Shown here piece by piece: positions 1-53,979 of a DNA stretch of 64,000 nucleotides (within the stretch, counting starts at the first letter, position 1; every line of letters starts with the position of its first letter). The notes under the pieces are model-generated. The model had not been told where the DNA came from. It saw only the letters and a list, made by a program, of their open reading frames with translations, and did not search any database. This DNA comes from Hormiphora californensis (taxonomy: Eukaryota > Animalia > Ctenophora). The stretch lies in contig CM035362.1 in the NCBI GenBank assembly GCA_020137815.1, positions 6,138,001-6,202,000 of the forward strand, written 5' to 3'. The position numbers were made by a program, and so were the translations under genes.

Positions 1-3000
1 TACAAATTACGTCCCAGCGGCGTATTCGTAGAACGACGGAAGGCTGGGGGGGGGTTTCTTATAACAAGAGGGAGGGGGGGAGCCGGAAAGACAACGGAAG
101 GGTTACGGGGCACAGAATCATAGGGAACAATCCACATATTTGAAGTGATTAAACGTGACATGGCCGTGGAGGGGATTTTTCAGGATGGAGGGCCAAGGGG
201 CTGGGGATAATAAGAAACAGGGGGGGGGAGGGGGGGAAAAAAAAATAGGTACAGGAAAGCGAGGGGGAACACCGACTAGGGGGGGCTATGGGAATACCGT
301 ACTAGAGGCGGGGGCTGTCGGAGGGGTGGGGGGCACACCTCCCCCACCCTCTCTGCCCCTTCTGTGTGGTCTGGTGGTGGGGGGGTTGTGGGTGGTGGGT
401 GGTGTTTTGTCTGGGGATGTGGTGGGGGGTTTGGTGTGGGGGGTTGGGTGTGGGTGAGGGGTGGGGGGTAAGGGTTGGGTTTTGTTGGGATGCCTGGGTG
501 AGAAGGCTTATGGGGGGGGGGGGGGGGGGTGTGGGTGGGTGGGGTGCAGGTCGGGAAACGGGGGGGGGGGTTAGTAGGGTGAAAGCGATGATGTGTGGGG
601 GGGGAGGGGGTGGGTGTGGGTCGGCGGAGGGTGCGGGGGGCATGGGTCGGGTGGGTGACGGGGGTGGGTTGTGGGTGGGGCGGGGGTTGGAAGTTGAGGT
701 GGGTGTCAGGGGGGGGGGGGGGTGGGGGGGGGTGGGTGTGGCGGTGGGGTGGGGACCGGGTGGGTGGGTGTGTGCGGTGGGGGGGGGTGTGGGGGGGGGG
801 GGTCAGCGAGAAACGGGGGGGGAGGGGTCTTTCCAAGAGGGGAGCTTTGGGGTTATATTCCATGGGGGTTAGTGGGGGCTTTTTGTACCGCACTTGTACT
901 TTGTTTGAAAGAAGTAGTCATGGAAGAAGAGAGAACAGGAGGTCAGAGTGAGTGGCGGAAAAACGAAAACACTGCGCAGTGTAAAAAGAAAATGGTGAAA
1001 AAGTTAACGCTGTATGTAGTACCTGTGGGGTTCAACAGTGGGGGGGTGAGGAGGATAGGGGTCACGGCGGCAGGAAAACACAGAGAGGAGACACTGAAGG
1101 CGCCAAAAAACGATGCAAAACGTATTCAAAACCTGTAAGGGTGAGCATGTCGGATACGAATGTGTGAGAAACACGGGTGTTTGGGAAAAAAATATAAGAA
1201 CAGCGGAAGGGGGGGGGACACGGCGAAAGGCAAAACTAAAGGTAATAGAAAGGCAATAAGAGAGCAGAGAGGGAACGAAAGTGCGGGTGGAGGGGGGGGG
1301 AAAAGGGGGAAAACAACAAGATGTCCATGGTGTAGAGATGTAGCCACATCTTGTGTAGAGTCGATGGGGGTTCTGAACGCAGTACCAAGGCGAGGTGGCC
1401 AGGGGGGGACAGCGAATTAATGTAAAGGAAAAAGCGCAGAGGGGGAACAATTCGCGGGGGAAAAAGAGGAGCGTTTTAGACGGGTCGGGGGGGGAGAAAG
1501 AGGAACCACAAAAATTAACAAAAAAAAAACAAAAGGAACTGGAGGAATATGGCCGAGATCCAAGTTAACCATATCGGGGGTCGTAAAAAAAGGAGGAAAG
1601 GAGAGAAAAAAAGGGGGGGGAGGGAGGAAATGAGTAAAAAGGGGAGGGAAAAAAAAAAAAACGAGAAAAAACAAAAAGAGGGGGGAGGGCGGGAAAGAAG
1701 GGAAGAAGGGGAGAAAGAAGGGGGAAAAAAGAAAAAGACAAGAAAAAAGAATGAACAAGAAACGAAGCAGCCCGTATATGAATGGACTGGGGCTTTTGAC
1801 AAACTTCTGATGTTGACAAGATCGTCCAAAGTGTCAGTGTCGGCCTTGAAAAAAAACAGATGTTTCTATCTTTGTGTAGGTGTATCATAACTTAATAGAA
1901 GTCTTATAAACTAAAACAAACATGCTGAGAGTTGACTAAAAAGGGCCTATAATACTGGCTTTGAAGTGATAGCACTTGACGAGATTGGGTGCCCAATTAG
2001 CGACAGCGATTAAAGCATCAGCGGTGATAGCAAGCAATAATGAGATGGAAGTAACGTAACAATATCACCGGGAGGGAACACTGGTTTTTAGCAGGGCCTA
2101 CGATGCGTCATTGCCCCCCCACCAAATTTTGAATCTATATCATCGAATTAGAGTGATACTGGCGACAAGATGGACAACCACACACGGTGCGGTGGCGGGC
2201 AATGGTCATGTAAACAAACACATAAGAAAAAAAAAAAGCTGGGCAAATGTGTGAATATGGAACGATTCTCTGTCCCACAAGAAGGTTTCACGGACAAAAC
2301 CCTCTATAATATAGACGGGCGTGTTCACTGAAAGTGTGTTTGAAGGTAACACAATATTTAAAAAAGTGGTGGCACAGTGTGTGAGAAAGGATGTGTTCTA
2401 AAAAGGAAAAGAAACATGCGAAAAAATTGCGGCGTGAGGTAATAATGAACAATTTATAACAAAAATTTGCAACAAAGAGATTGTTTTATATATAACTGTA
2501 CTGGGAGGGTGGTGGTAACCCCCATGTACACCGAAAACACGGGGCCAAGTATGCGTGGTACGAAACAGATCCTTACAAATAAGGCTCCCGCACGGGATCA
2601 CAGGGCGGGACGGAAACGTGCGGGATCGGATACACACACGATGAAAGACACGTTAGCCGGGGGAAAGGGACAAAAGAGCACGGGGTGAAATACATGCCAG
2701 TCATTAATAAATTCGCAAAGCGTGACTATTTGGTTATAACAGTAAAATGGAAAAAGGAGGGAGAAAAAAATATGGGGGCGGGGAAGGGGGGAAAGAACAA
2801 ACGACGAAACAAGTGTAATGGGCAGGCAGAATATAATGCGCCTTACGGCATACCGCTGAAAATGCCCCATAAGTCTATGCCACGGGAGGAAGAAGAAGGA
2901 CACGAAAGCTGGCGGGTTAATGAGGGGCGGTCGTGGCGAAATGTGCGATCCTGTTGGAATCACGCGGATAAATGGAGCAAGACACGACGAAGGGAGGACA

Positions 3001-3740
3001 CATAATCGGAACCGGAATCCATAAGAAGTAATCCCACTGAAATACAGACGGAGTAAGTTGTAGATAAGCACAAGGCAGATCATGAAGAGTGGTCAGACTG
3101 TAGGTCGAACAAGCCCTAGGGTTCAGGTCCGCCGGGTGGGCAGGTAAAACGTCCCGTAGGTTGGACTGGGTGTGTGGTGGGTCAAATAACTCGTGAATTG
3201 GGATTGTGCAGAACAAAAGTCACCGCAACAAGGGGGCGCCAGACACTTTTGGGGTGGATGGGCATGTAGAAAACTGGTAAACCAGAGTAATTAGTCAGAA
3301 ACTAATCGCAAGACACCCTTCCGTGGGAGAAGCGACGCGCACCAGGAGAGTGAGTCACGTGAAAGTCGTGACGCGAAGAAGAGCAAGCGGGAACGATTTT
3401 TGGGTTCGTCCAAGGGATCCGGACCGACCACTCTGGTCAACGGGTAAAGCGAACCAGTCACGCGATAAATTGCATGACAAATAGGTGTGAACGCTGCATC
3501 CTCGAGGTGTACAAAAGGCACAAAGGATAGCTGACCAAGCGGGAGTTCAGGGTATGACAAAAAGAGGGGAAAAAAAAAAAAAACGGGAAAGTTGTCTCAC
3601 CACAAGGTTGAAAATTAGCCATTTCAGTACGAAAAGGAAGGAAAGAGGTCACAGGAAGCAGTAGTATATAAGGAAAAAGTGGGGCAAGGGTCAACTGTCG
3701 AAGAATTTTCAAAGGAGGAGGGTCTTAAAAATTCGAAAAA
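1..3740. other. Low-accuracy, homopolymer-rich (G/A) sequence; probable noisy contig segment
   Basis: Long irregular G and A runs with no stable repeat unit; ORFs are Gly/Pro/Lys/Phe low-complexity only; adjacent 5-8.8 kb sequence is a visibly error-ridden copy of cleaner sequence elsewhere in the window. Confidence 0.7.
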
Positions 3741-5330
3741 GTTGTGGTTCGCAATTTCGATTTTCCATTCACTGGAAGCAAGAATTCTGGGAAAATGACA
3801 TTTTTAAGGAAGAAATGGTGGAGGAGGAGGATTTGGCCCCGGGCGCTGTCCAGCGCTAGATCGATTGGAGATATAGAGTCCGGCTTTCGCCGGACTCGGA
3901 GTTGCGGCCCGTTAGGCCGGAAACTGGTTGCGTCTACCCCATCCGAATTTAAAGTGTTGGGCCGTTTTTTGGGTTCGATTTCAGGGAGTAGGTTATTGTT
4001 ACAGGGTTCTGTTTTTGGGTTGGTTTCGGATTTTAGGGGAGAAAAAAAAGAGGCGACATATCAGATCCGGTTGGAGGATTGGGCCAAATGTAAGGGACCT
4101 CATATATCTAAAAATCTACCTCAGGTGGCGGACTCTTATGCTAAACAGTCCTCACAACAGGGAGACATCTTTATCTGAAAACTTTATTTTTCAAATCTAC
4201 TGTAGGATAAGAGTCCGGTTTTTAGATATAGAGTCCTCCTCGATTTAGATACAGAGTCCGTTTAGAGGCACTAGAGTCCTCCCACCTTCGAACAGGTCCT
4301 CAAAGCGTTTCGAACCTATCTTCTGATAAACCCTCATAAGGGGTGTCCTTCTAAACCGTGCTGGGAGTGTTCAAAAAGGCTCAGAAGCCAGATTACAGAT
4401 TTGGACTTCATAGTGGTCATTTTTACCCTCTACTGTTTGACAGACAAACTTCTCGGGTATTTTCCCTAATATAGGATGAGAATTGTAGTCTTTGGTTCGA
4501 CAAACACCGGATGCAATCGGCCAGTGGATACGCGTGCATGTGGCTATGTAAAGACCGACCCTTTTTATGGGGCGGAGCTCGATTCTGCGGTCGCTGCGCG
4601 CCTCGATCTGCACGCACAGGTGTGCAATGCACCGGAAGCTCGTATAATGCCAATAGATATCCACGAGGAAGTGAACGACGAGGGGAATATCGTGTTCTAT
4701 CGTGTAGGGGATTATCAAATTTCTCACATCACTTTACAGCCTGTTATTTGTTCTAAAAACCGAACCCCGGACATTAGGAAGGTTGTGACTGGGCAACTGG
4801 ACAACACGGGAAAGGAACAATTATCTGATATACCCATATAAAAAACCACCCACGGCGCGGTGCTGAGTAATTCCAGGCTGACAGTATACTGTGGTGTGAT
4901 CAATATTCCCTCCTCTGTTTTCAACACATTTCATAATTCCCGGGTCGTTTTATAATAAATACCACGGCTAGTAGAGTGATGAAATTTGATAATCACCCTA
5001 CGGGGATTATCACACGATATTCCCTCGTCAGTCCGTTTCCTCGTGGATACGGAGATAGTATTGATATAACACCCTTACAGGGGGTATAGTACAGATGTTA
5101 ACAATCACACAAATCAAATACTAGGCCGGGTTTACGTATTATAGTAGCAGGCTGCGGGAAATATCAAGTCAGGGGTGGGGGTGGGTTATATCCCCTGGTA
5201 GTCACTTTATGTGATTTGCTACTTTCCAAGATTCCAATCTCACTCATCTCGTATCTTCTCCTCGTTATCTCAGTCCTCTATCTTTTCACACTAATTAAAC
5301 TAAACTGTACACAATACATAGTAACCTTTC

Positions 5331-8300
5331 TCCGTTCAGTTGTCCTGATAGAACCATCGATAACTCGCAACTTATTTGACTGGGATTACCAAGGGGAAAG
5401 GTCCGTAACTGTCACTTGCACGGATAACACCTTTGACTAAAGGATCAAGCACGGTAATCTTGATAGAACAATACGGGGTTCATGGGAGTGAGGTCTCTCC
5501 CCACTTGGTGAAAATAGGTAAAAGTCCCGAGAATGGCAAAATGCTTTATACAACGAAAGCCCTAATCATTAGACAAAATATATATCTCCAACATGATACA
5601 TCTAAACACCGGATCATCAGCATGGACGAGCTCTCGATGGGGGGACAAACTCTAGACTTCCGACCCTTGCTGCTGTTGGTTGGCGAGTAGACGATACAAT
5701 CACCATGCGCAATCTGGATCCTAGCAAGTTGAACGGAAAAGTTCAATAACAGTGTGAACTAGCAATGGATAAGGGTGGGTTCCGGGACAAATGAATAGGA
5801 TTGGTCCCTAACATAGCTATAAAACGGAGGTTAATACACGAATCAAAACAGTAAACGGCATTTATTCTCCATATTGGTCAATGTCCTGTCTGATACTTCA
5901 TTGGCGGGTACATTTATCGGACTTTATCTTCATGTGTTAACCATTAAATTATTTCCCGCCGTTGGCCGATAGAACCCTCGATAACTCGCAAACTGATTTG
6001 AATGGGATTGAACGCGGGATGCCGTACTGTCACTTGCACGGAGAATGCAGTTTGAACTAAACGGATCAAGCAGGTAATCTTGTGACCAATGACGGGTCAT
6101 GGAGTTCTCTCCCAACTTGTGAGAAATAGATCATCATAATAGGGAACGATGCAAAGTTTTTTAAAAATATAAAAAATTATACTAGAAGCCTTGAATTAGA
6201 GCCACCCGTTGAGCTAATTCCCCACACGGTCTCCCTCACCCAGGAGCCACCCCTCTCACCCGCTGCACCAACCCGCACTGAACCTCCCATACCCCTCCCA
6301 AGCACCTCCTTGGCCACCCCCACCCGCATTTTGCACGTGATGATAGGACATCATCACTACCACGAAACGTTCATTGCCTTATTATAAAGGACTAGCGCCC
6401 CATTGGGTGCGCCTCAAGTAAGGGCTGTTCTTTTCGCCCCTTTCCACGTCCTAACACGGTTGGCCCATGCAACGAATTGATAAATTGAAAGAGACTGGCA
6501 CTTTGAAGTCATTCTAAAATATTTACAAAACCTTCCATTGGAAGTTCCAAAAGTGTAATGGCAGCTTTACAGCTTTGGGTACATAGAAGTGTATTTATGA
6601 AGGAGAAGTCCTGTCGCTTAGATACCGACCTAACTCACACTTGCCACTTCGACGCGGACATATAGTGAGAAGAAAGTGAGTCAGGAGTTATGTCACATCA
6701 AGATGGAGCATAGATAGAACTATGGGAACATTTTTTTTCACACGACAACATTTTTGGGTGGACTTAAAAAAAATAAACTCGGGGGGCACGTGCATTTCAA
6801 GTTCACTGGCAGTGGGAGACTATCACAACATCAATTGCCAAAAACCAAAAAGTTCCTCTATTACCTACACACTAGAATGGGACCCCAGCTTTTGGCGGGA
6901 CCGACGTTCGCTCAATTCTATTTTTTACTCCCGTCTTCGGGCTGTGGATTCTCACTCACCAAGTTACCAAAGTCCCTCTCACGATTTGTTTTGTTGTTCC
7001 TTGTGCGAGGATTTACACAAGCTCAAACTGCTACGAGCCTATTTACGATGGTGAAAAGGGCTACAGAAGGTATAAAAACAGTGTCAATATCAACCTAAGA
7101 CTCTGAGGGGCAGGGAGGACAGTTGATCAACGAAGCAACCAGTCAATTCCTAGTACGGGAAACCGGAGGACCACTGTACGCACATTCCGGACAACCCGAC
7201 AGGAATAGAAAAATGTTAATGAAAGCTGTAGCGTAGTCCAACGTGGCTCATGAAATGTATACAGCAAGTACAACACAGTTACCGCAAAAGAAAAGTACCA
7301 ATGGTGGTACACTGCAGCACACTGTACCATGCAATTTGCTGTAGTGTAGGGCTGAAAAATAGAGACAAGAGACATCGTGAGCGAACTGAACTGCAGTTTT
7401 AGTCTTATGAAGAGTCGCGGTAAATTTTGGCGAATGTTGTATAACCATGACTATTAACAGTGATAAACCAGGATCTTATAAATATATTGGATTCTATCAT
7501 TGCTTTTCCGCCAAAGGCAAGACACTCCTAGTAGAACTGTGGAACCTGCCTGATGATGAGTCCTCCAGTGAATTGAACTGCATTGCGATTTTATTTTAAG
7601 TCCACCAAATGTTTGTTTTGAATCAGCTCAAGTCTACCTATGCCCCTCGTTTGATGTGACATAACCTGATATGTTACCTACCACCGGATGGACCCAGCTT
7701 TTGCGGACGATTCGCTTTCGGATCATGTTATACATCTTTGATATACATTGTTTTAGAGTTAATCCCGGCAGTCATTCTCGTTGGTTGATAAAAGGGAAAC
7801 TACTTCAATAGAGCGGCGTGGAAGGGTTCCCTATTGTTTACATGGCACTGTCTGTGATTATGGCTTTGATTCTTGCACCGAGCGACCTCATCTGCAAGGC
7901 ATGGGATTCGAGTCATCGCACAACACGGCACCGGCTACTTTAACTCCACTAAAAAGAAATGTCACGTATGGCATTACTCTGGACGATGTTAAGATGCCAT
8001 TCCAGCACGTAGTCAATTGAGGAGTGTGCAATATAATATTGAGGGATAATGAACCCTCGATCACATCAAAGATGTTATCGGCGTGTACCAAACCGGAGCA
8101 AGGTAATAATCACTGTCTATACTGGACCACCTTTCCTATAACCAACAATCCATTTATTATTTGTCTCCAGGTGAATCCCATGACGGTTGCTGACTTTGAA
8201 ATAGATTCACAACAACCTCTCAGCTGAAGTACATGGGACGAATTTAATCCTGTTTGTAGAAAATGAGGGGGGAAGAGGGGGGGAAGAAGGGAGGAAAAGA

Positions 8301-15124: not shown

Positions 15125-16742
15125 TCAAAGGCCGGTAAGTAGTTTATATTAATTACTTATCCGTTAACAGATTATCAACTAATTATCGACTAATTATCAA
15201 CTAACAATATGCTTCAACATCAATTACCAAATTAACAACTAACTAAATAACCGGGTGAAGGTATAACAGTCGGACCCCGATTTAGTGGCACCCCGATTTA
15301 GTGGCAGGATTTTTTTCCCCCAAAAATTTTTTGAATTTTTTTGTGAAATTTTTTTGAACATTTTTCAAAGGTATATATTATAATTACAAGAGGGGGTCGA
15401 GAGGGGAGACATGTTTTGTTGGAAAGGATGTAAACTGGATTCAATCACAGAGATTGCCCCCCCTGTTTAAAGTGAACTCTGGGGGAGTGGGAGAGGGAGG
15501 GGTAGACAGCATATAATATCAAGATAGTGGAACACAGATAAATTTACAGTGAGCCATGGGAGAGAAAGTTGGAGTTGGGTACACATAAAGCAACGGAGAG
15601 AAAAAGTTTGAGTAACTAAAACAAAGTTAGTATTCGGTGAAATTTAGATCAAAGTATTGATATCGCAACTGAACCGCCAATGGCAGATCCTAGCTTAAAT
15701 ATATATATAGTTGCCTAATATAGTGGAAGAAGATTCCATTGTTGTTTTTCCAGTCCATTCTAGTTGCTACTCATCAACCCAGTTAGTATATAATAGATAT
15801 AAGCAAGGTAAACGAGAGATAGAAAGGGGATAGAGAGATCAGGGAGAGTGAGAGAGATTGATTGAGAGAGGTATGAAATTGAAACGTGAATGGTTGCTTG
15901 ACTGCAGTATGGGAAGAAAATATTGTATCCCATTATTTTCCCCATCCTCATGCTACTCAACAACCCGGTTCTAAGAATAGTAAAAGAAGCTCGTACGTGA
16001 TCTATACTTTCCGGCTTCCGCTACTCAAGCCTAGATTGGAAGTGCTTGGAAGATAGCCTAGCTGGAAACGTACTGTTTGTATTACATATATGGTACAGTC
16101 GGACCCCGATTTAGTGGCAGGATTTTTTTCCCCGCCCGGGTGAAGGCCGAAGGCCTTCACCCGGATGCCTTTTGCAAAAAGGCATACGGGGTTTATAAAT
16201 CTAAACGGATATAGTAACTATGTGTAGCAACTAGCAAGTCAGCTCTCTTATCCCGTTTCTGGTTGCGAGGGGCAGCATGTAGCAACTAGAGCCGCGCACA
16301 CAACAACAACCTGCTCCTTCATAAACCACTTCATTGACACGTTTTCAGGAGATATGTGGCGCGCAATTCCGCAATGTGGCGCGCAATTTAATGCTACTAA
16401 AACAGAAGGATTTGTTCTATACTGTTTGCGTGATGTATAAATGATCCGAAATGTCTGTCCCGCCTTCGTGTTAGAAATGAAACGTTGGCGGGGAAACATA
16501 GCATTATGAAACATAATGTATTTATTCTTGTTTTCCCCCAAAAATTTTTTGAATTTTTTTGTGAAATTTTTTTGAACATTTTTCAAAGGAATACCAGCCA
16601 CGTCCGAATCGTGTTTCGAATCGGTGCATCTTATCGCATGCCCTGCTGCTTATTAGACGGTTTGGAACGAACAGAAACGTGATCCCCATCGAATCGAAAT
16701 TTTGACGCTTGGTAAACATGTGATTTAATGGCCCCATCTAAT

Positions 16743-17592
16743 GAGGGATATCATACGACTCTTACTGAAGTTAGCAGGTGCTGATTGATTTCGCAATCGC
16801 TTACTGGAGTAAGCGACAGGTGCTGACTGTTTTCCAAAATAACTCTTAATTTCTTGTAAGAGATATCAAGAGTAAGAGAATGGTGATTCCATTCTCTTGT
16901 GTGGTAAGCGCCGTCCCCCCAAACTACTATGTCCCTTGCTGCGCGCGACCGGATTTTAGACGGCCATAGCTCCACCCCTTGATAAGATAGAGACCTGAAA
17001 TTTGTTTTGTAGGGAGATCATATTGAGTTCTTCGTACAAAACAAATTTCAAGTCTCTATCTCATCAGGGAGTGGAGTTATGACCGTGGGAAATTTCACAA
17101 AACCCGAGTGAGGGACATAGTAGTTTGGGGTGTACTTTAGCGACGTATAAACTCTTAAAACTCTTAACTGACGGGGGATCACAGCATCTGGTCACGTGAA
17201 AGGTCACGTGATAAGTCCTAGTGCACAGGGATAGCCTGTGACTGCGTACATGTGATCAATAACAGCCAATCAGAATGCAGCTAGTGAGTGAGAGAGAGCA
17301 AGATAGTAACGCGCGGCGCTCTGGCACGGTGCGGTTTGGGCGCTGGCAGGCTTTTACATGTTGCAACATGTAAAAGCCTGTCAGCGCCCAAACCGCACGT
17401 GCCAATGCGCCGCGCGAGATAATCTCTCTCAAGGGGGCACCCTGTCTTTCACTTTCTCTCCCCAATTCTTTCCCCTGTTGCTCACTCAGGATAAGAGTTT
17501 TGAGAGAACACACAGCACTGTCGCTTAAAAGAGTTATGCTGTCTGTTTTCTCGATTGTCGCTAACTGCAGTAAGAATCGTATGATTTCCCTC
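16743..17592. mobile_element. Non-autonomous DNA transposon, TIR GAGGGAWATCATACGA, 3-bp TSD AAT (PHIS/Pangu-like); contains an extra ~215-bp palindromic segment 16917-17130
   Basis: aat|GAGGGATATCATACGACTCTTACTG ... CAGTAAGAATCGTATGATTTCCCTC|aat. Confidence 0.85.
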
Positions 17593-18852
17593 AATTAGCA
17601 GCACCGATTAAGATGCACCGATTCGAAACACGATTCGGACATGGCTGGTATACCTTTAAAAAAATTAATACTTTTTTTAGCAAAATTTTACAATACGATT
17701 GTCAATGCTTTGATCGGTGCTCTCCATAAATTTTTAGAGAATAAGTTATTTTGAAATTTTGATACTTCCTCACCCGCTTAGGGTGCCCCGATTCGGCATG
17801 GAATTAAGTCTCTATTTTATCTCGTTTATTGGATAATTAGCGCATGGAGGGGTAGCAGGGGCTTATAACTCTCCTGGTCGGCTGGAACACGGATGTTACT
17901 CTCGGTCGCCTCCCCCCGGTCGGTGGTCAAGCACTTGCATAATGGTTGGGGTTGAGGAGAATTGACGACACACGAGATGAGGGGATTGAAAACAAGTTTC
18001 GCTACAACATTAGCATTGCATCATCAGATCATCCCTAAAACACTAACATGGTTAAAACACTCAATACAAGTACAACACACTGTCAAAAAACCGGCATGAG
18101 GGAGCAAGAGGGGGCTGTCACGCGCAAATATGACGCCGCGCGACGACAGTTTCAAAAAATCCGACTTTACGACTTTTAGTTTCCCACCCTTTTGCTCCCT
18201 CACGCCGGCAAGTGTGTTGTACTTGCATATTTAATTAGTTTTATGGTATAATAATTTGCAAAATTGTTGATAGAACTAACCTGTTGTTTAAAGAATCAAA
18301 ACGAAAAACAAAATCATGTTACAACAATTAACACGAGAATCAAAACGAAAAACAAAATCATGTTACAACAATTAACACGGTCGCTGGTAGTGGGAAAACG
18401 GTAATGGAAAACGAAGATACAGTAAGACGACGCGCAACCGTGACCAATCAGGGCGCTAGTACGTGCTGACACATGTACTTTTTGCAGCACGTTATAGAAC
18501 TAACCTGTTGTTTAAAGAATCAAAACGAAAAACAAAATCATGTTACAACAATTAACACGAGAATCAAAACGAAAAACAAAATCATGTTACAACAATTAAC
18601 ACGGTCGCTGGTAGTGGGAAAACGGTAATGGAAAACGAAGATACAGTAAGACGACGCGCAACCGTGACCAATCAGGGCGCTAGTACGTGCTGACACATGT
18701 ACTTTTTGCCGCACGTTATGCACCGTGCGCGTCTCCTTACTGTATTTTGCGTTACCGTATTTTGACTGCAAGCAGCACTGTAATAAACTAAAACAATGTC
18801 AGGCCATCTCCCGTGATTGAAATACTGTTTGCTACACACAAATTTAGCAGTC

Positions 18853-29416
<10,564 letters not shown>

Positions 29417-46659: not shown

Positions 46660-47607
46660 TCATGTCTGATTGTTGTTCAGCCTATTCTTGCTTTTCAGGT
46701 TTTGAGAAGATTCCTCCTTCAATCTTTTCCGCTTTTCCTTTGACTTTTTATTTGATTTAGCTACACTCTCCTTGCCTTTCTTTTTTGAGTCATTCCGCAT
46801 ATAGCTTTTCATTTTTATAACTTTATTCTGCCTCTCCTCAGGATCCACTTCAGCCCAGTAGTCCGAGTAGACTCTGAGAAGGTGTCTGATTTTATCCCCA
46901 TTCTCCTCCATTCCAAATGAGCTGTCCATCCGCTCCGACAATTCCACCTTGAATTCCGTGTAAGCCAAATCTCCAATTAAGCCATACAATTCTTCAATTA
47001 ACACACTGGAAGGTTTGTATTTCGATACTTTTTTATCTTCATCCTCTTGCCTGGCCTTCGCTATCTCTTCCTCAACTGCTTCGCTTATCTTCGTATATTG
47101 CATGGCATACATATAATCCCAATAGTCCCACTTTACACCACCATTTTTACTCTCGACATTCTCTGCACTTTTCGAGCTCTCCCCTCTTTCCTCCTGGCTT
47201 CCGAAAGGCACACAACCACTATCGACCACGTTTGACTCAACTTTTTCCAACTTTGTCTCCTCGTTAACTTTCAGACAGTTCCTCCGCTCGCTCAGACATT
47301 CAAACTCTCGAGACAGACATCCTAATTCTCGAGACAGGTATTCATAATGTCTTGCCAAGTACCCATATCGACCGGAAATCCCACTCCCCGACGAACACCC
47401 GCCACAAGCTCGAACTACATCCACAGTAGACACGACTGACTCCGGTCCAACGTTCGTTTCCATCTTCCTCCTTTTTCCTTTGGCCGTGTTCCTCTCCGCC
47501 GACACATCGACACTCCTTTGGGCCAGCGGCGACAACATGGCAGTGTCCATCACAAAGCGAAAAATATCCTCGACATCCGGGCTGTTTGTTCGTTTTGCTT
47601 TGTACAT
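46660..47607 (-). CDS. 315-aa intronless ORF of the LTR element, unknown function (heptad repeat, Lys-rich C-terminus)
   Basis: Long open frame in AT-rich context, sense to the element; no recognisable gag/pol motif. Confidence 0.6.
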   Translation of the reverse strand: MYKAKRTNSPDVEDIFRFVMDTAMLSPLAQRSVDVSAERNTAKGKRRKMETNVGPESVVSTVDVVRACGGCSSGSGISGRYGYLARHYEYLSRELGCLSREFECLSERRNCLKVNEETKLEKVESNVVDSGCVPFGSQEERGESSKSAENVESKNGGVKWDYWDYMYAMQYTKISEAVEEEIAKARQEDEDKKVSKYKPSSVLIEELYGLIGDLAYTEFKVELSERMDSSFGMEENGDKIRHLLRVYSDYWAEVDPEERQNKVIKMKSYMRNDSKKKGKESVAKSNKKSKEKRKRLKEESSQNLKSKNRLNNNQT

Positions 47608-49394
47608 TTCTAGATTGTATTTTTGTTAATTTATCTATTTCTAGGCGAACTTGTGTTCGCTAACTGTTAAAATAAAGCGGAAGATTGTACTGTATTCTAT
47701 AAACGTTGCAAAGACTGGTTTAATCAAATAAATTGATGATATGATGTAAATTAAAATGCGATATGTTGTCCTAATTGTAGTCTCTTGTTGATTCAATTTT
47801 AATAATATGTATACACATACATTCAAGCTTACTTAACATGATAAGGCTTGCTTAATTAAATATGAAGTCTAATAATTATTTAAAGCAATTCAATTTTGTT
47901 ATAATCACTTAACAAGTCGTTCCTAACAAGTCTAGTAAATACACACAGAAAATATACATGTTCTTCCGTCATGTTTTTGTCTCTCTCTCTCTCCCTCTCT
48001 TTCCTTCTCTCTCTCTCTTGAAATAATACCATCTCTATTTACACCACAATTACCGTCATTTCTGATCATACTCGCAGCTTCAATTTCTTTACAATTACAA
48101 TACCCAAGCCACGTGACTCGTGAGCCATTTCCTTGTTTAACTATGCCTTTCATTCGCCATGTCTTATTTTTTTTTTTTGCCCAAATGCTAATACTACCAT
48201 TTCCCCGTTGCCCTTCCTCTACCATATGGCCACGGCAGTCGTAATAATTCTCTATTTTCACCCATCAGATTGGCACCAATCAACTGACTTGTATATTACT
48301 TTGACTTTATTTTACTATTTCTTTTTACTACACCTTTTTTAACCTCTTATTATATGTCCTCTACCTATGCTTATTCACATAACTTCTAATTATTCAATTT
48401 GACTAATTTTTAAATAGCTCACTTCCCTTTAACTTCCTTAATTCTATGTAATCTAGAGCTACTATCCTACTATGTAATTTTATGTAATTGCCTTTTCTTC
48501 CCGCAATGTCATTATCTATTTTCGCCTGTTTGCTATTTTCTACTCTGATCTATATGGTTTGTGTTACAAATATCTTGCCATCTAGAATGGATATGATGTT
48601 ACTATGATTCCCTCCCCATGATCTCCAACTACTATTCAACATTTCAAGGACATCTTTTCAACTAAAATTCCCGACAATTTGTAACTAACTTTCATCGCTT
48701 ATCGCATTTATCAACAACGTTCTTCAATCTTAGTAGTATAGTGCGGACAGTTGGGACCTATTTTAGCCTCCTAAGCGAGCCACCATTTTGTATGTGCATG
48801 TCACGTGACTTCTAATTACCAAAATTATGCGGCGCTGGCAAGAGTTGTTCATTAGAATATTGGGAGCGCCGGCAAGGGCCTTGGAATTTATTTTGGCGCT
48901 GACAAGGGCCCACATTCGCGATTGGGATTTCTGTATGATGTCAATTTTTGTTTGGGATTTCTGTGTGATCTCACCCCTATCACATTACACTCCTGCCACA
49001 ATGCATATAACTTTCTCTCTCTTTTCTCGTGCTGGTGTTCTGATACAAATAATAGAATACTCCAGAGTTCCCCCAATATTCATCTAATGTTCTTTTGTTA
49101 TTCTTATCGTTCTTTTGGTATTCCAGTGACTTTTCATTAGAAAGGAACGAGCCGGGAACGGTGAAAATTACAAAAGAACAGCATCGGAACGGTTTTTTGT
49201 TAGATAAGAAAAGTTGGAAAATACAAAAGAACAGTGGAAATTAGAACGGAACAACAGCGGAACGACGGCGGAACAGTAAAATGTTGCAAAATGTTTCGTA
49301 AACGAAAACATAACAACTTTGTGTCTATAAACAAATTAAGAGACAGGTTTTTCTCGAGACAAATTAATGAATAAATAAAATGCTAGCAGTTATA

Positions 49395-49832
49395 TCAAAA
49401 TTGAATCTTCATTATATCAAATCTAATGCAGACCACAGCTTCGACTTTCCATGCTGTAGATGGGCGTGAACTCCTTGCTATTTCTAGCAGATCTTCCCGT
49501 TCTATATTTTCTTTTACTTTTTTCACGTCTTCTCGCCCAGAAATTAATTGAGCAGTCTCAAAAACCATTGTATTATTAGAAGGGTGATAAAATTTAACTT
49601 CACCAGTAAGTTTGTTTGTCATAAAAAATCCGAATGCGACATTCAGTTTTATATCATTCTGATAGTTTTCCAAGACTTTATCTAGTTTACCAAAAATTCC
49701 ATCAGTGGGTGACAGTGGAAAATGATAAATATCTTTTAGTTTGCCTTTTGTAGTACGCTGACGAATAGTTGACCAATTTTTCCGGTACAACTCCCAAAAC
49801 TTGACGGGCACAGTATCTAGAAACGCGTCCAT
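49395..49832 (-). CDS. 145-aa protein resembling the N-terminal (pre-exonuclease, putative terminal-protein) region of Polinton pPolB
   Basis: LYRKNWSTIR, KLNVAFGF..N..TGEVKFYHPSNN, DLLEIARSSRPSTAWKV; ATG start, stop, TATATAAA ~45 nt upstream. Confidence 0.7.
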   Translation of the reverse strand: MDAFLDTVPVKFWELYRKNWSTIRQRTTKGKLKDIYHFPLSPTDGIFGKLDKVLENYQNDIKLNVAFGFFMTNKLTGEVKFYHPSNNTMVFETAQLISGREDVKKVKENIEREDLLEIARSSRPSTAWKVEAVVCIRFDIMKIQF

Positions 49833-50224
49833 GATTCTTATGGTAGCAATTATGCATAATTATGGTAACACCGGTTTATATAGCCAAAGATATGTTCTAC
49901 TTCAATTATCGACGGGTCATAGCACTGTTATTCCCAGTGTTCTTTTGGTATTCCAGTGACTTTTCATGAGAAAGGAACGAGACGGGAACAGTGAAAACTA
50001 CAAAAGAACAGCAACGGAATGTTTTTTTCGTTAGAAAGGAAAAGTTGGAAAATACAAAAGAACAGTGGATATTAGAACGGAACAACAGCGGAACGACAGC
50101 GGAACAGTGAAATATTGTAAACTGTTGCAAAATGTTTGATTCACTGGAACAATAAAACCTACTTTGTTTTTGGTTTGTAAAACAAATAAAAAGACCTTTT
50201 TTCAAAAAAAAGAAATATAATTAA

Positions 50225-50971
50225 CTATACATTTAAACTTTCATTTTCTAAATCTCTTAAAAGCAACAGCGTTTTTTCAACAACTTGGAAAATATTTGCA
50301 AACTCTTTAGAATATTTTAAAAATAATTTTTTGATTTCTTCAACGCTCTTTTTGTCAACTAATTTAATCAATTTTCGTTCTTTTTCATTTAATCTCTTTC
50401 GCTGAAAAACAACAAGTGGAATTACACCATACTTTAGACCAGTACACAACGTTTTAATAGCTTGTAAAAGTTGGTTACTACGTGAAACCTTGACAAATTT
50501 CTTTGAAGCAAACAATCGACTGAGTTCTAGAAAGTCAGCAATATTTTTGGAGTTAATTATTGAATCGGAAAACTCGTTAAAGGTACTGTCCTTAAAATTT
50601 GTTATAAACTCATCGAGTTGCTTTTCAAATAACCGAATGCGACTCAAATGTTGTTTTGATTCCGTCAGCTTTGTTTTGTACAAACGTTCAAACTTGCGAG
50701 CGTGCTGATCTCGCACATGATACAATTCCTTGTAATTTAGTTCAGGCTTTTTCACAACTTTAGTAAGTGTTGATACTGTTGGTGAAGGGTTTTCCGAATC
50801 TTTATCGCTGATATCTGCAGAGGTGTCATCTATTGGATAATCCTCATCTATCTGTAGTTCTTTGGTATCCATACCTTCATTAATCGTAGGCTTTTTGTGG
50901 TAGAGGTCTTTATGTTCAAGGAGTTGATAAATGAAGGGGAACGATTGGTCACACAAGTCACAAGCTACCAT
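50225..50971 (-). CDS. 248-aa protein: N-terminal C2H2 zinc finger, coiled coil, basic helical C-terminal domain
   Basis: CDLCDQSF...LLEHKDLYH; TATATAAG ~30 nt upstream of the ATG. Confidence 0.8.
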   Translation of the reverse strand: MVACDLCDQSFPFIYQLLEHKDLYHKKPTINEGMDTKELQIDEDYPIDDTSADISDKDSENPSPTVSTLTKVVKKPELNYKELYHVRDQHARKFERLYKTKLTESKQHLSRIRLFEKQLDEFITNFKDSTFNEFSDSIINSKNIADFLELSRLFASKKFVKVSRSNQLLQAIKTLCTGLKYGVIPLVVFQRKRLNEKERKLIKLVDKKSVEEIKKLFLKYSKEFANIFQVVEKTLLLLRDLENESLNV

Positions 50972-51029
50972 TTGTAAAGAAATGAAGATAGTTGTCCCTT
51001 ATATACCCATGGCATGACATCGAAAGAAA

Positions 51030-51383
51030 CTAGTTACTGCAGTTAGGACATTTATTTTCATAGGTTTCCGGAAACAGCTTGTTCGTAATATTATCAAACA
51101 TTTCTGGGTTCTGGTTTAGCATTTCACGAATTTCAGTTAATGAGTTTGATTCCTTAATGGCGTCCACAAGAAGTTTCTCGCGATCTGTTAGATCAGCTTT
51201 GCTGATATCAGCGTCAATAAGATCGTGCTTGAAAGCAAAGCAGTGTAGCAAGCATTGGTATGTATTTTCTCGGTCCGAAGATTCGCTATCAGATTGAGAT
51301 ATATCTGAGTCAGATTCTGGATCTGAAATATCACCTAAGCCCATTTTCTTAGACGATTCGTGACGCGTAATAGATCTTGACAT
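51030..51383 (-). CDS. 117-aa protein (ATG 51383) with an acidic Ser/Asp tract and a helical domain related to the C-terminus of the 248-aa ORF
   Basis: TATAAAAA ~35 nt upstream; LTDREKLLV..IKESNSLTEIREML....EMFDNI. Confidence 0.7.
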   Translation of the reverse strand: MSRSITRHESSKKMGLGDISDPESDSDISQSDSESSDRENTYQCLLHCFAFKHDLIDADISKADLTDREKLLVDAIKESNSLTEIREMLNQNPEMFDNITNKLFPETYENKCPNCSN

Positions 51384-53979
51384 GACTAGAAATGAGTTGC
51401 ACGCAATAAGCAATCTCTTTTATAGTTCCGAACTACCTATTTTACTGTTCTGGTGCTGTTCCGGTGTTGTTCCAGTGTATCACAAACCGTTCCGTTGTTG
51501 TTCTTTTGTAATTTTCACTGTTTCCATTTCGTTCCTTTTTAATGAAAAGTCACCGGAACACAATAGAACACTACAAATGATAAAGTAACGACAAAATCAT
51601 TTTCAGAACACCTGTGTAAAAATACGTTTCCTAGTTTATGTGTATATACTGCATGTTTTCGTTTATGAAACATTTTGCAACATTTTACTGTTCCGCCGTC
51701 GTTCCGCTGTTGTTCCGTTCTAATTTCCACTGTTCTTTTGTATTTTCCAACTTTTCTTATCTAACAAAAAACCGTTCCGATGCTGTTCTTTTGTAATTTT
51801 CACCGTTCCCGGCTCGTTCCTTTCTAATGAAAAGTCACTGGAATACCAAAAGAACGATAAGAATAACAAAAGAACATTAGATGAATATTGGGGGAACTCT
51901 GGAGTATTCTATTATTTGTATCAGAACACCAGCACGAGAAAAGAGAGAGAAAGTTATATGCATTGTGGCAGGAGTGTAATGTGATAGGGTGAGATCACAC
52001 AGAAATCCCAAACAAAAATTGACATCATACAGAAATCCCAATCGCGAATGTGGGCCCTTGTCAGCGCCAAAATAAATTCCAAGGCCCTTGCCGGCGCTCC
52101 CGATATTCTAGTGAACAACTCTTGCCAGCGCCGCATAATTTTGGTGATCAGAAGTCACGTGACATGCACATACAAAATGGTGGGCCGCTTAGGAGGCTAA
52201 AATAGGTCCCAACTGTCCGCACTATACTACTAATCTTCATAAAGACCAACAGCTATGTTATGTGGTTCAAAAGTACCTTACTACAACATTGGAAAATATG
52301 AAAACGTCTGTAGGAACAACAAATTTACTCAGTCGGAGCTACTAATCATTTTCAGCATGAGAAACAAATCTACATCAGAAGGAGCCACTATTTTCTGTGT
52401 TTTTCACTGCAAGTGTGAATTGGAAAGCTATCAATTTATTGAGTATGTACTAAAGCTCAAAGCGATTATATTATTATGTGTATTGTTTTAGAGGTAAACT
52501 AAAAGGGTTAATAAACTAATTAAATGTTAAATCTAAAATTAATTTGTCTATTTTAATTTACTCTAGTTTTTAATCAAGGCTAACAAGTTAGTAAAAAAAA
52601 CTATACGATCACGACCTATTTTATTTCGGGACAAAGTGCTAAAATTTCATAGTTCTAATTAAAATACTATAGATCTGGGGATAATTTACCTACAATTATT
52701 GTACTTATAGTTTGACATACCGAATGTAGCGTAGTTCGTCGGTTTGAGTACGTCTCCACTGTCTCCTGGATGTTCCAATTCTTTATCTTTCCGTTGCGTC
52801 TTTTATCAGAACAGTTATCACCCTTCTATGTTTATCTCTCCACCAGACCAAAGTTTCGGGAGACCAGTCCACCAGACCAAAGTTCGGGAACCTTTGCGCT
52901 TACCAGCACAGTTACTTATAAAATTATTACTTTGATTTTAAAGCCTACTCTCAAAATTTTCCTCTATCCTAATTCCTCTATCTTAATTAACATTTTCTAC
53001 AAGCAATTCTCACTACGTCTAACTACTTACTAAAGTTCAAACACCGAAGCCACCATGTTGCAATGCTAGGTTTTGCGGGTTTAAGCGGGGTTTTAACGGT
53101 TAGCATTGCCTCACTAAAGTCACCTAGACAAAAGCGGTATTTCCAGTTTCGTGCATGAGCTAAGGCTCACCTCCTAATTGGTCTAAGTCTCAAAGTAATA
53201 CACCTCAATTTGGTATAGATAAGAAAGTAATGTATCATGTTCAAGTTCACTAATCATGCTTCTACACATCTCACATTCTAATGTCACTACACAACTAATT
53301 CTGTCTATATTGTCTCAGTCTATAAGTCTCAACTATCTCACTAATCTATCTACTCAACTCTACTCTACTCTACAGTTCACATATAGGTTTACGATGACTG
53401 ATAGGACATCTGCTTGGCAAACAATGCTTCGTAGTACATATATTATTGACATGGGGACATCTGCTTAGCATGGCTCGCTATGCTTACAGTTATGAGCTGA
53501 GCTGAATGCTGAAATGGTGTCCCTTTTATACTGCTCCGGACCAGGCTTATCTCATGATGATCTATTATTGACGTATTTCCTGGCTGTGGGCCATCTGTGT
53601 CTCGTGATTGTCCATTGACCTCCTTTGGCACCCTCTTATAGTTTCTCACTTTAGTTTATGTCTTTAGCTTCATCTCTCACGTCACGATGTGCTAACTAAC
53701 TGGCGGGTCATCATTCCATCATGTAATTGGCATGTCGCCAGGCAATTAAAAGTAATCAATTCGTTATGGTCGAATTCTGGGTTTGGTCCAGCACGTCACG
53801 GTATTGTAAGATGTAATCTAAATCACATGATCCTCGCACGACTATGTTCATTATCTCACGTAAGGGAACATCTCACGTTTGACTGTCATGTCTTTCCCTG
53901 GCCAGGTAATCACTGTGCCAACTTCCGGGTGTGATTGAATAATGGTTCAGTATAGGAATATGTAATATTCCAACATAGT

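Follow-up and report, generated by a model that had tools for sequence, protein, structure and literature searches.

How can a small mobile element without a DNA polymerase gene come to keep a gene for the protein on which its replication would be primed? The question is raised by a 64,000-nucleotide stretch of the genome of the ctenophore Hormiphora californensis (assembly GCA_020137815.1, contig CM035362.1, positions 6,138,001 to 6,202,000 of the forward strand; hereafter the window). A first-pass annotation had described in it a stand-alone gene, here P0001, for the N-terminal domain of the Polinton DNA polymerase pPolB, a domain proposed to act as a priming terminal protein (TP). The annotation suggested that the gene might supply an element with its own primer or act as a decoy for the polymerase of a helper. 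The computational analysis reported here places P0001 in a complete 3,500-bp element with Polinton-type ends that is probably a helper-dependent Polinton parasite making its own primer.

P0001 and the TP domain of pPolB find each other by sequence in both directions. Among the matches to a profile of 15 close sequences is a 666-residue protein in which motifs of TP, vOTU and exonuclease are present (E 2e-9; hhalign 96.5%); at E 0.001 the profile collects 1302 representatives. The Pfam family DNA_pol_B_2 (PF03175) scores above cut-off in 5 of the 20 long profile matches scanned (best E 3.5e-21); in these proteins the P0001-like region lies near the N-terminus and the match spans the whole length of P0001. 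The 1370-residue pPolB of locus L022, which has vOTU and polymerase motifs, carries an N-terminal domain 34% identical to P0001. Conversely, a hidden Markov model of 13 fused domains, themselves picked by the first profile, scores P0001 at 121.9 bits, the best of 1000 shuffled sequences reaching 7.0. A profile is needed for these matches, as a search of longer proteins with P0001 as a single sequence gave none. Pfam, NCBIfam and the ESM Atlas returned no name for any of the three open reading frames (ORFs) of the element, tblastn against phages gave no match, and scans of viral contigs with A1, A3 and P0086 gave no confirmed locus. P0001 is confirmed as a homologue, over its whole length, of the N-terminal TP domain of Polinton pPolB. 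This is the identity given by the first-pass annotation, which was to be withdrawn if pPolB N-termini matched neither by profile nor by structure; matches of both types were found. The C-terminus of P0001 lies 17 residues past Trp128, and in 46 of 54 fused domains a P-I-G linker starts 18 residues past it. P0001 thus ends where the linker to vOTU begins and therefore matches the predicted cleaved TP.

The AlphaFold2 model of P0001 (predicted local distance difference test score, pLDDT, 91) has the topology beta-alpha-beta-beta-alpha-loop-beta, with strands at residues 33-39, 61-73, 79-82 and 128-142 and helices at residues 46-54 and 100-122. The modelled four-stranded sheet and two helices follow the order of a D1/PRD1-like TP. 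In a wide comparison with the PDB, little-finger/PAD domains of the Y-family take the first rank and 9 of the top 20 rows; weak structural likeness to these little-finger domains is the published signature of PRD1-like TPs (Krupovic et al., bioRxiv 10.1101/2024.03.18.585575). A Foldseek search of the PDB with the model gave nothing at E 0.001. The AlphaFold and Foldseek check proposed with the annotation gave a model with the TP fold and a single viral match at that threshold.

According to the same authors, the loop that connects alpha2 to beta4 in a TP holds a Ser, Thr or Tyr close to a Pro or Gly (Krupovic et al.), and P0001 agrees. Its loop reads Arg123-Pro124-Ser125-Thr126, with the proline two residues ahead of Thr126, the predicted linking residue. 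Position 126 was compared in 166 domains, of which 33 were classed as 'other' and left out of the counts; it is Ser or Thr in 72 of 73 fused domains and in 55 of 60 stand-alone domains. Cluster members P0020-P0051 are likewise excluded from the counts, and seven short rows among the fused domains are presumed pPolB fragments. Ser125, which is invariant in A1, was considered as the linking residue and dropped because the fused domains have Asn or Asp at 125 and Ser or Thr at 126; it stays an alternative within the stand-alone set.

P0001 is a gene in its own right. The four motifs quoted in the annotation lie at residues 15-24, 62-69, 76-87 and 114-128, and the TATA box, ATG and stop that it described are all present. 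Of 21 related loci whose upstream DNA was read by eye, 17 have a TATA(A/T)A box no more than 90 nt ahead of the TP gene. Searching proteins of similar length with P0001 gave 15 clusters at 46-91% identity, the fifteenth of which, an 86-residue fragment, was excluded from the comparison of starts and ends. The 14 near-full-length clusters share a common Met and end within a few residues of one another; 13 are 143-150 residues long and the remaining one has an N-terminal extension. Four public runs gave 31 variant sites in P0001, comprising 24 synonymous and 7 non-synonymous sites and no stops, with 21 at the third codon position; the ratio of non-synonymous to synonymous polymorphism (pN/pS) is 0.079 (binomial p 4e-11). 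No listed variant falls on the ATG or the stop codon, and neither of the two listed indels touches the ORF. Because no variant is listed at start or stop, the homologues have nearly the same length and the listed indels spare the frame, P0001 is not truncated. A stop specific to this copy, which the annotation had named as the finding that would undo it, is ruled out, and conservation of start and stop across copies, which it had asked to see checked, is borne out by the homologue alignment and the variant sites. The gene is under purifying selection. No RNA data set was listed among those that contain the sequence, and one run presumed to be RNA contained two short pieces at a depth below 4, too thin for a reading on expression.

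The annotation placed the gene correctly and did not describe the element around it, with its terminal inverted repeats (TIRs) and AATCTT target-site duplication. The element is complete, extends from 48732 to 52231, begins with AGTAGT and ends with ACTACT. Such (AGT)2//(ACT)2 ends with 6-bp duplications are reported hallmarks of Mavericks, in which initiation by jumping back is the expected function of the repeated ends (PMC8097293). Between the TIRs lie three minus-strand genes for proteins of 117, 248 and 145 residues (the last being the TP), each with its own TATA box. These are the only ORFs longer than 90 residues there; none matches pPolB or the rve integrase, and genes for a polymerase, an integrase, an ATPase, a protease and a capsid were all absent from the element. 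It thus shares with autonomous Polintons the ends and the 6-bp duplication and lacks pPolB/rve, ATPase/protease/capsid and a length of 13-25 kb. It agrees with non-autonomous Polintons in being enzyme-free, in its Polinton-type ends and duplication, and in its presence at more than one site, the flank differing in a second organism. A ~200-bp inner segment of the TIR is dense in short GAAC/GTTC repeats and recurs upstream of two of the genes; the re-used segment is possibly a shared enhancer or protein-binding array.

Public runs point to further copies, and in four of them contig coverage is restricted to the element. One organism is represented by three runs (three samples from two studies, with 61-87% of the words present), each with 977-5167 contigs that stay inside the limits of the element. 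Many divergent copies would account for these contigs, no copy number being derivable from them. Depth was not taken as copy number, nor zero flank depth as proof of polymorphism. In the second organism, a 1415-nt contig covers 50288-51701 at ~95% identity and joins both other genes to the right TIR, and a separate contig covers the TP gene. Another stops matching precisely at 52231, where it passes into different DNA, and is an independent insertion end. The terminal 17-mer, sought in viral contigs, occurred only in one unrelated phage, a chance match.

Stand-alone TPs were placed in context in 25 metagenome loci. The TP is fused in 1 locus, free within Polinton-type clusters in 12, free beside a C2H2-finger gene in 7 and without context in 5. 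Hallmark Polinton genes were seen in L013, L014, L017, L018 and L020, and the rest of the 12 were assigned by eye from shared accessory ORFs. A separate TP gene is not restricted to this element, being reported also in a coral Polinton and found here in full-size clusters. In a tree of 91 TP rows (few columns, with rough bootstrap values and 43 of the 73 fused domains left out), 53 free TPs including P0001 lie on one side of a branch (99/96). This stand-alone clade is far diverged from the fused TPs and has its own C-terminal signature, Cys135 and Arg137. No branch of the best tree sets the eight TPs that neighbour C2H2 genes apart as a group, and a single clade has p 0.22 in the approximately unbiased test.

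DNA transposons ordinarily give rise to non-autonomous derivatives that keep only their TIRs, and such forms are common among them. The element could likewise have lost its interior recently from a full-size parent Polinton in which the TP gene was already separate. It would move by its TIRs alone, and the gene, whose conservation was earned in the parent, would be of no use to it. The stand-alone TPs within full-size clusters would provide such parents, and the reads cannot tell copies of the mini-element from copies of a parent. Passive derivation is nevertheless improbable, since the neighbouring genes do not occur as one uninterrupted block in any of the full-size clusters, a TATA box of its own precedes each gene, and the 1415-nt contig of the second organism links P0002 and P0003 to the right TIR. 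Furthermore, L007 and L009 are co-linear up to TACTACT, 380-450 bp past the TP gene, and diverge beyond it, and the first 12 terminal bases of L012 are identical to those of the window element; a C2H2 gene, a TP gene and a terminus thus recur in L007, L009 and L012 at ~40% TP identity.

Two loci show free TPs close to a polymerase gene. In L018, a pPolB whose TP is fused and whose vOTU Cys/His motifs are intact (1805-3268, minus strand) lies divergent from a cluster with a second, free TP (6871-7341, plus strand). L017 overlaps L018 at 98% and extends to an rve integrase and an ATPase. The polymerase gene of L018 has an interruption and might be that of a neighbouring element; the L018/L017 Polintons possibly carry two TPs. 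In L014 (3-2829), a free TP of P0001's subclade directly follows a pPolB gene that runs off the contig at its N-terminal end, making this locus a candidate for a split polymerase or a helper type. The window element could then be a genome segment or partner, in which a companion Polinton with a TP-less polymerase, like that of adenoviruses and the Stylophora element, depends on P0001 and the relation is mutual instead of parasitic. Besides L014, a Polinton with a separate TP and a vOTU-led pPolB has been reported (Krupovic et al.). We consider such a partnership unlikely, as the full-size elements of the free-TP clade carry that gene themselves and the sole polymerase N-terminus visible near a free TP gene, that of L018, has a fused TP.

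Among the other features of these loci, a short A/T-rich repeat forms long arrays ahead of the C2H2 gene at the 5' ends of L004 (1-450), L007 (1-650), L009 and L010; L004 differs in having a palindromic array and the C2H2 gene on the opposite strand. P0060 is an 858-residue C2H2-array protein with two TP-like domains, an altered linking loop and no polymerase, possibly captured by a host. P0069 has two TP-like domains ahead of vOTU.

The proposal that the element parasitizes a helper Polinton and makes its own primer would involve the following steps. The TP gene would be transcribed from its own TATA promoter, and its 145-residue product would correspond to the mature TP whose release from pPolB by the vOTU protease is predicted for full-size Polintons. 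At the (AGT)2 ends, the helper pPolB would link the first nucleotides to Thr126 in the manner of jumping-back initiation in adenovirus. A helper would make one fused TP per polymerase and use one for each new strand, so that a supply of free TP would allow the small genome to be copied by polymerases whose own primer is spent. The helper integrase would insert the element with a 6-bp duplication, and the GasderminX/pX-like protein described below may aid entry into helper particles, the weakest step. Since the TP is diffusible and the element that encodes it is non-autonomous, purifying selection on this protein suggests that the element profits from its own TP, for example via passage in particles; the same argument from selection has been used for Mavericks and retroviral env.

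Several observations weigh against this proposal. The structural Z-scores of P0001 are middling (4.5-5.8, the best being 5.8) and tied with those of unrelated folds, and the sole viral Foldseek match at E 0.001 is a C2H2 protein of a Drosophila adintovirus (E 1.7e-5), below which the weaker polymerase matches rank. Priming by the TP domain of Polinton pPolB is itself a structure-based prediction (Krupovic et al. 2024, PMC11161782). The variant sites of P0001, most of which come from the second organism, cannot be assigned to 3.5-kb copies as opposed to an unseen longer parent that has these genes too. The small size is seen in the window copy only, no related contig reaching both ends. Neither a further Polinton gene nor a helper was found in the window by tblastn with the ORFs of the 25 related loci. 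Ser or Thr is missing at position 126 in 5 of the 60 stand-alone homologues, and the fused and free TPs of L018 indicate that free TPs may have another function than standing in for a missing primer.

The last two observations, together with the long divergence of the stand-alone clade and its signature residues, would suit a decoy or competitor. The free TP would occupy the helper polymerase or the vOTU protease and lower helper replication, the TP of the helper would prime the mini-element, and the host may benefit. This role is doubtful for P0001, as the linking position is retained in its Arg-Pro context in 55 of 60 stand-alone TPs, the same gene occurs in full-size Polintons, where a pure inhibitor is hard to fit, and replication-type ends are intact in the window element. 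Of the two roles offered by the annotation, we infer that supply of a primer is better supported than a decoy by the retained linking residue, the purifying selection and the (AGT)2 ends. More tentatively, the element may represent a class of primer-only satellites of animal Polintons. These would be integrating linear DNAs of 3-4 kb with the TP as sole replication gene, which would hijack spent helper polymerases and, through an adaptor derived from a core protein, travel in helper virions between marine hosts.

The 248-residue protein P0002 has a model with a pLDDT of 65 (80-90 in the helical domain). Its top Foldseek match is GasderminX of the Terrapene adintovirus (probability 1.0, template modelling score on the target 0.73, root mean square deviation 2.7, E 0.067). 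A two-row P0002 profile matched the small protein after the ATPase in L017/L020 (hhalign E 2e-4, probability 46%), and a six-row profile gave no match to that protein. GasderminX is an accessory gene of the virion module and has a pX-like tail (Starrett et al., PMC8502044); P0002 is without the GG-plus-hydrophobic tail of the GasderminX/pX-type protein, a conserved helical protein of ~110 residues. With moderate confidence, the C-terminal domain of P0002 resembles that protein. Among the ORFs of the loci, its one significant homologue is the C2H2 protein of L012 (phmmer E 8e-6), the C2H2 proteins of L004, L007, L010 and L015 not being significant by phmmer. The 117-residue acidic protein P0003 was considered as a paralogue of the P0002 helical domain, and the comparisons gave no support.

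Table 1. Positions in the window of the features of the 3,500-bp element and its flanks
Feature	Position	Strand	Remarks
Left target-site duplication, AATCTT, 6 bp	48726..48731	.	Same 6-mer on both sides
Left TIR, 580 bp, 5'-AGTAGT ((AGT)2 motif)	48732..49311	+	572/580 identical to right TIR
Stand-alone TP (PRD1-like D1 domain) gene P0001	49395..49832	-	Read 49832-49395, 145 residues, ATG through TGA; profile and reciprocal matches, fold model, pN/pS
Codon of Thr126, predicted DNA-linking (priming) residue	49455..49457	-	Loop between last helix and last strand
TATA box of TP gene, TATATAAA	49875..49882 (49882-49875)	-	43 nt 5' of ATG
Internal copy (~90% identical) of inner 200 bp of TIR	49926..50132	+	Upstream of TP gene
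Gene P0002, 248 residues	50225..50971	-	C2H2-like finger, acidic spacer, long helix, C-terminal helical domain
Acidic gene P0003, 117 residues	51030..51383	-	Own TATA box; no homologue found
Second, partial internal copy of inner TIR segment	51438..51572	-	Upstream of 117-residue gene
Right TIR, ending ACTACT-3'	51653..52231	-	Contig of second organism leaves match here
Right target-site duplication, AATCTT	52232..52237	.	Same 6-mer as left

Elsewhere in the window, a charged ORF of 315 residues lies outside the element at 46660-47607 (minus strand); it has no Pfam or NCBIfam match and is unlike the Polinton loci. The region 16500-26500 contains nested inverted repeats with arms of 109-196 nt that are 94-99% complementary, and within it a 300-nt exact direct repeat at 21346 and 25117.

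The start of Polinton replication is known by structure prediction alone, and the TP is normally part of a polyprotein of 1,100-1,400 residues. A free TP of 145 residues with a matching 3.5-kb template is small enough to make a direct priming test, and localization of the linking residue, practicable. That selection maintains a trans-acting gene in an element which is not autonomous points to a satellite and not to debris. The clade of free TPs, one of which shares a contig with a fused-TP polymerase, suggests that an adenovirus-like split of TP and polymerase can start by duplication, and it constitutes a gene that small parasites could capture.

The closest known counterpart of P0001 is the D1/TP domain of pPolB, arranged as TP-vOTU-EXO-PALM (Krupovic et al. 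2024, PMC11161782), which it resembles in sequence, in fold and in the Ser/Thr and Pro between alpha2 and beta4. P0001 differs in being a separate gene that stops before the vOTU linker, in belonging to its own 53-row clade and in residing in a polymerase-free element. A TP encoded by its own gene is already known from one coral adintovirus/Polinton, that of Stylophora, and from adenoviruses (pTP), in the account of Krupovic et al. Those genomes encode their own polymerase and the window element does not, the Stylophora TP being compared here by its description. The TPs of adenovirus and PRD1 have helical extensions, whereas P0001 has one N-terminal helix only. No TP-only Polinton satellite or mini-element appears in the available portions of the literature searched, which included PMC6431247, PMC11296320 and bioRxiv 2023.08.22.554363, 2025.02.07.637071 and 2026.10.13.758929, Repbase and subscription journals lying outside this scope.

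Polintons, Mavericks and adintoviruses have in common with the element the (AGT)2//(ACT)2 ends, long TIRs and 6-bp duplication (PMC8097293; PMC8502044; bioRxiv 10.1101/2023.08.22.554363). The TP homologue is shared as well, and P0002 has a putative GasderminX/pX-type domain. In contrast to Polintons of 13-25 kb, the element measures 3.5 kb and is without pPolB, integrase, ATPase, protease and capsid. Non-autonomous Polintons that are small, TIR-bounded and helper-dependent are said to have been described by Kapitonov and Jurka in 2006 and in Repbase. Unlike these, the window element keeps a replication-priming gene under purifying selection. Transpovirons and the yeast killer plasmid pGKL1 borrow functions from a helper. 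They are likewise linear and TIR-bounded and have a TP-like domain (Krupovic et al.), but that domain is fused to a replicative enzyme which they encode themselves, whereas the window element encodes the TP only and is integrated in a chromosome.
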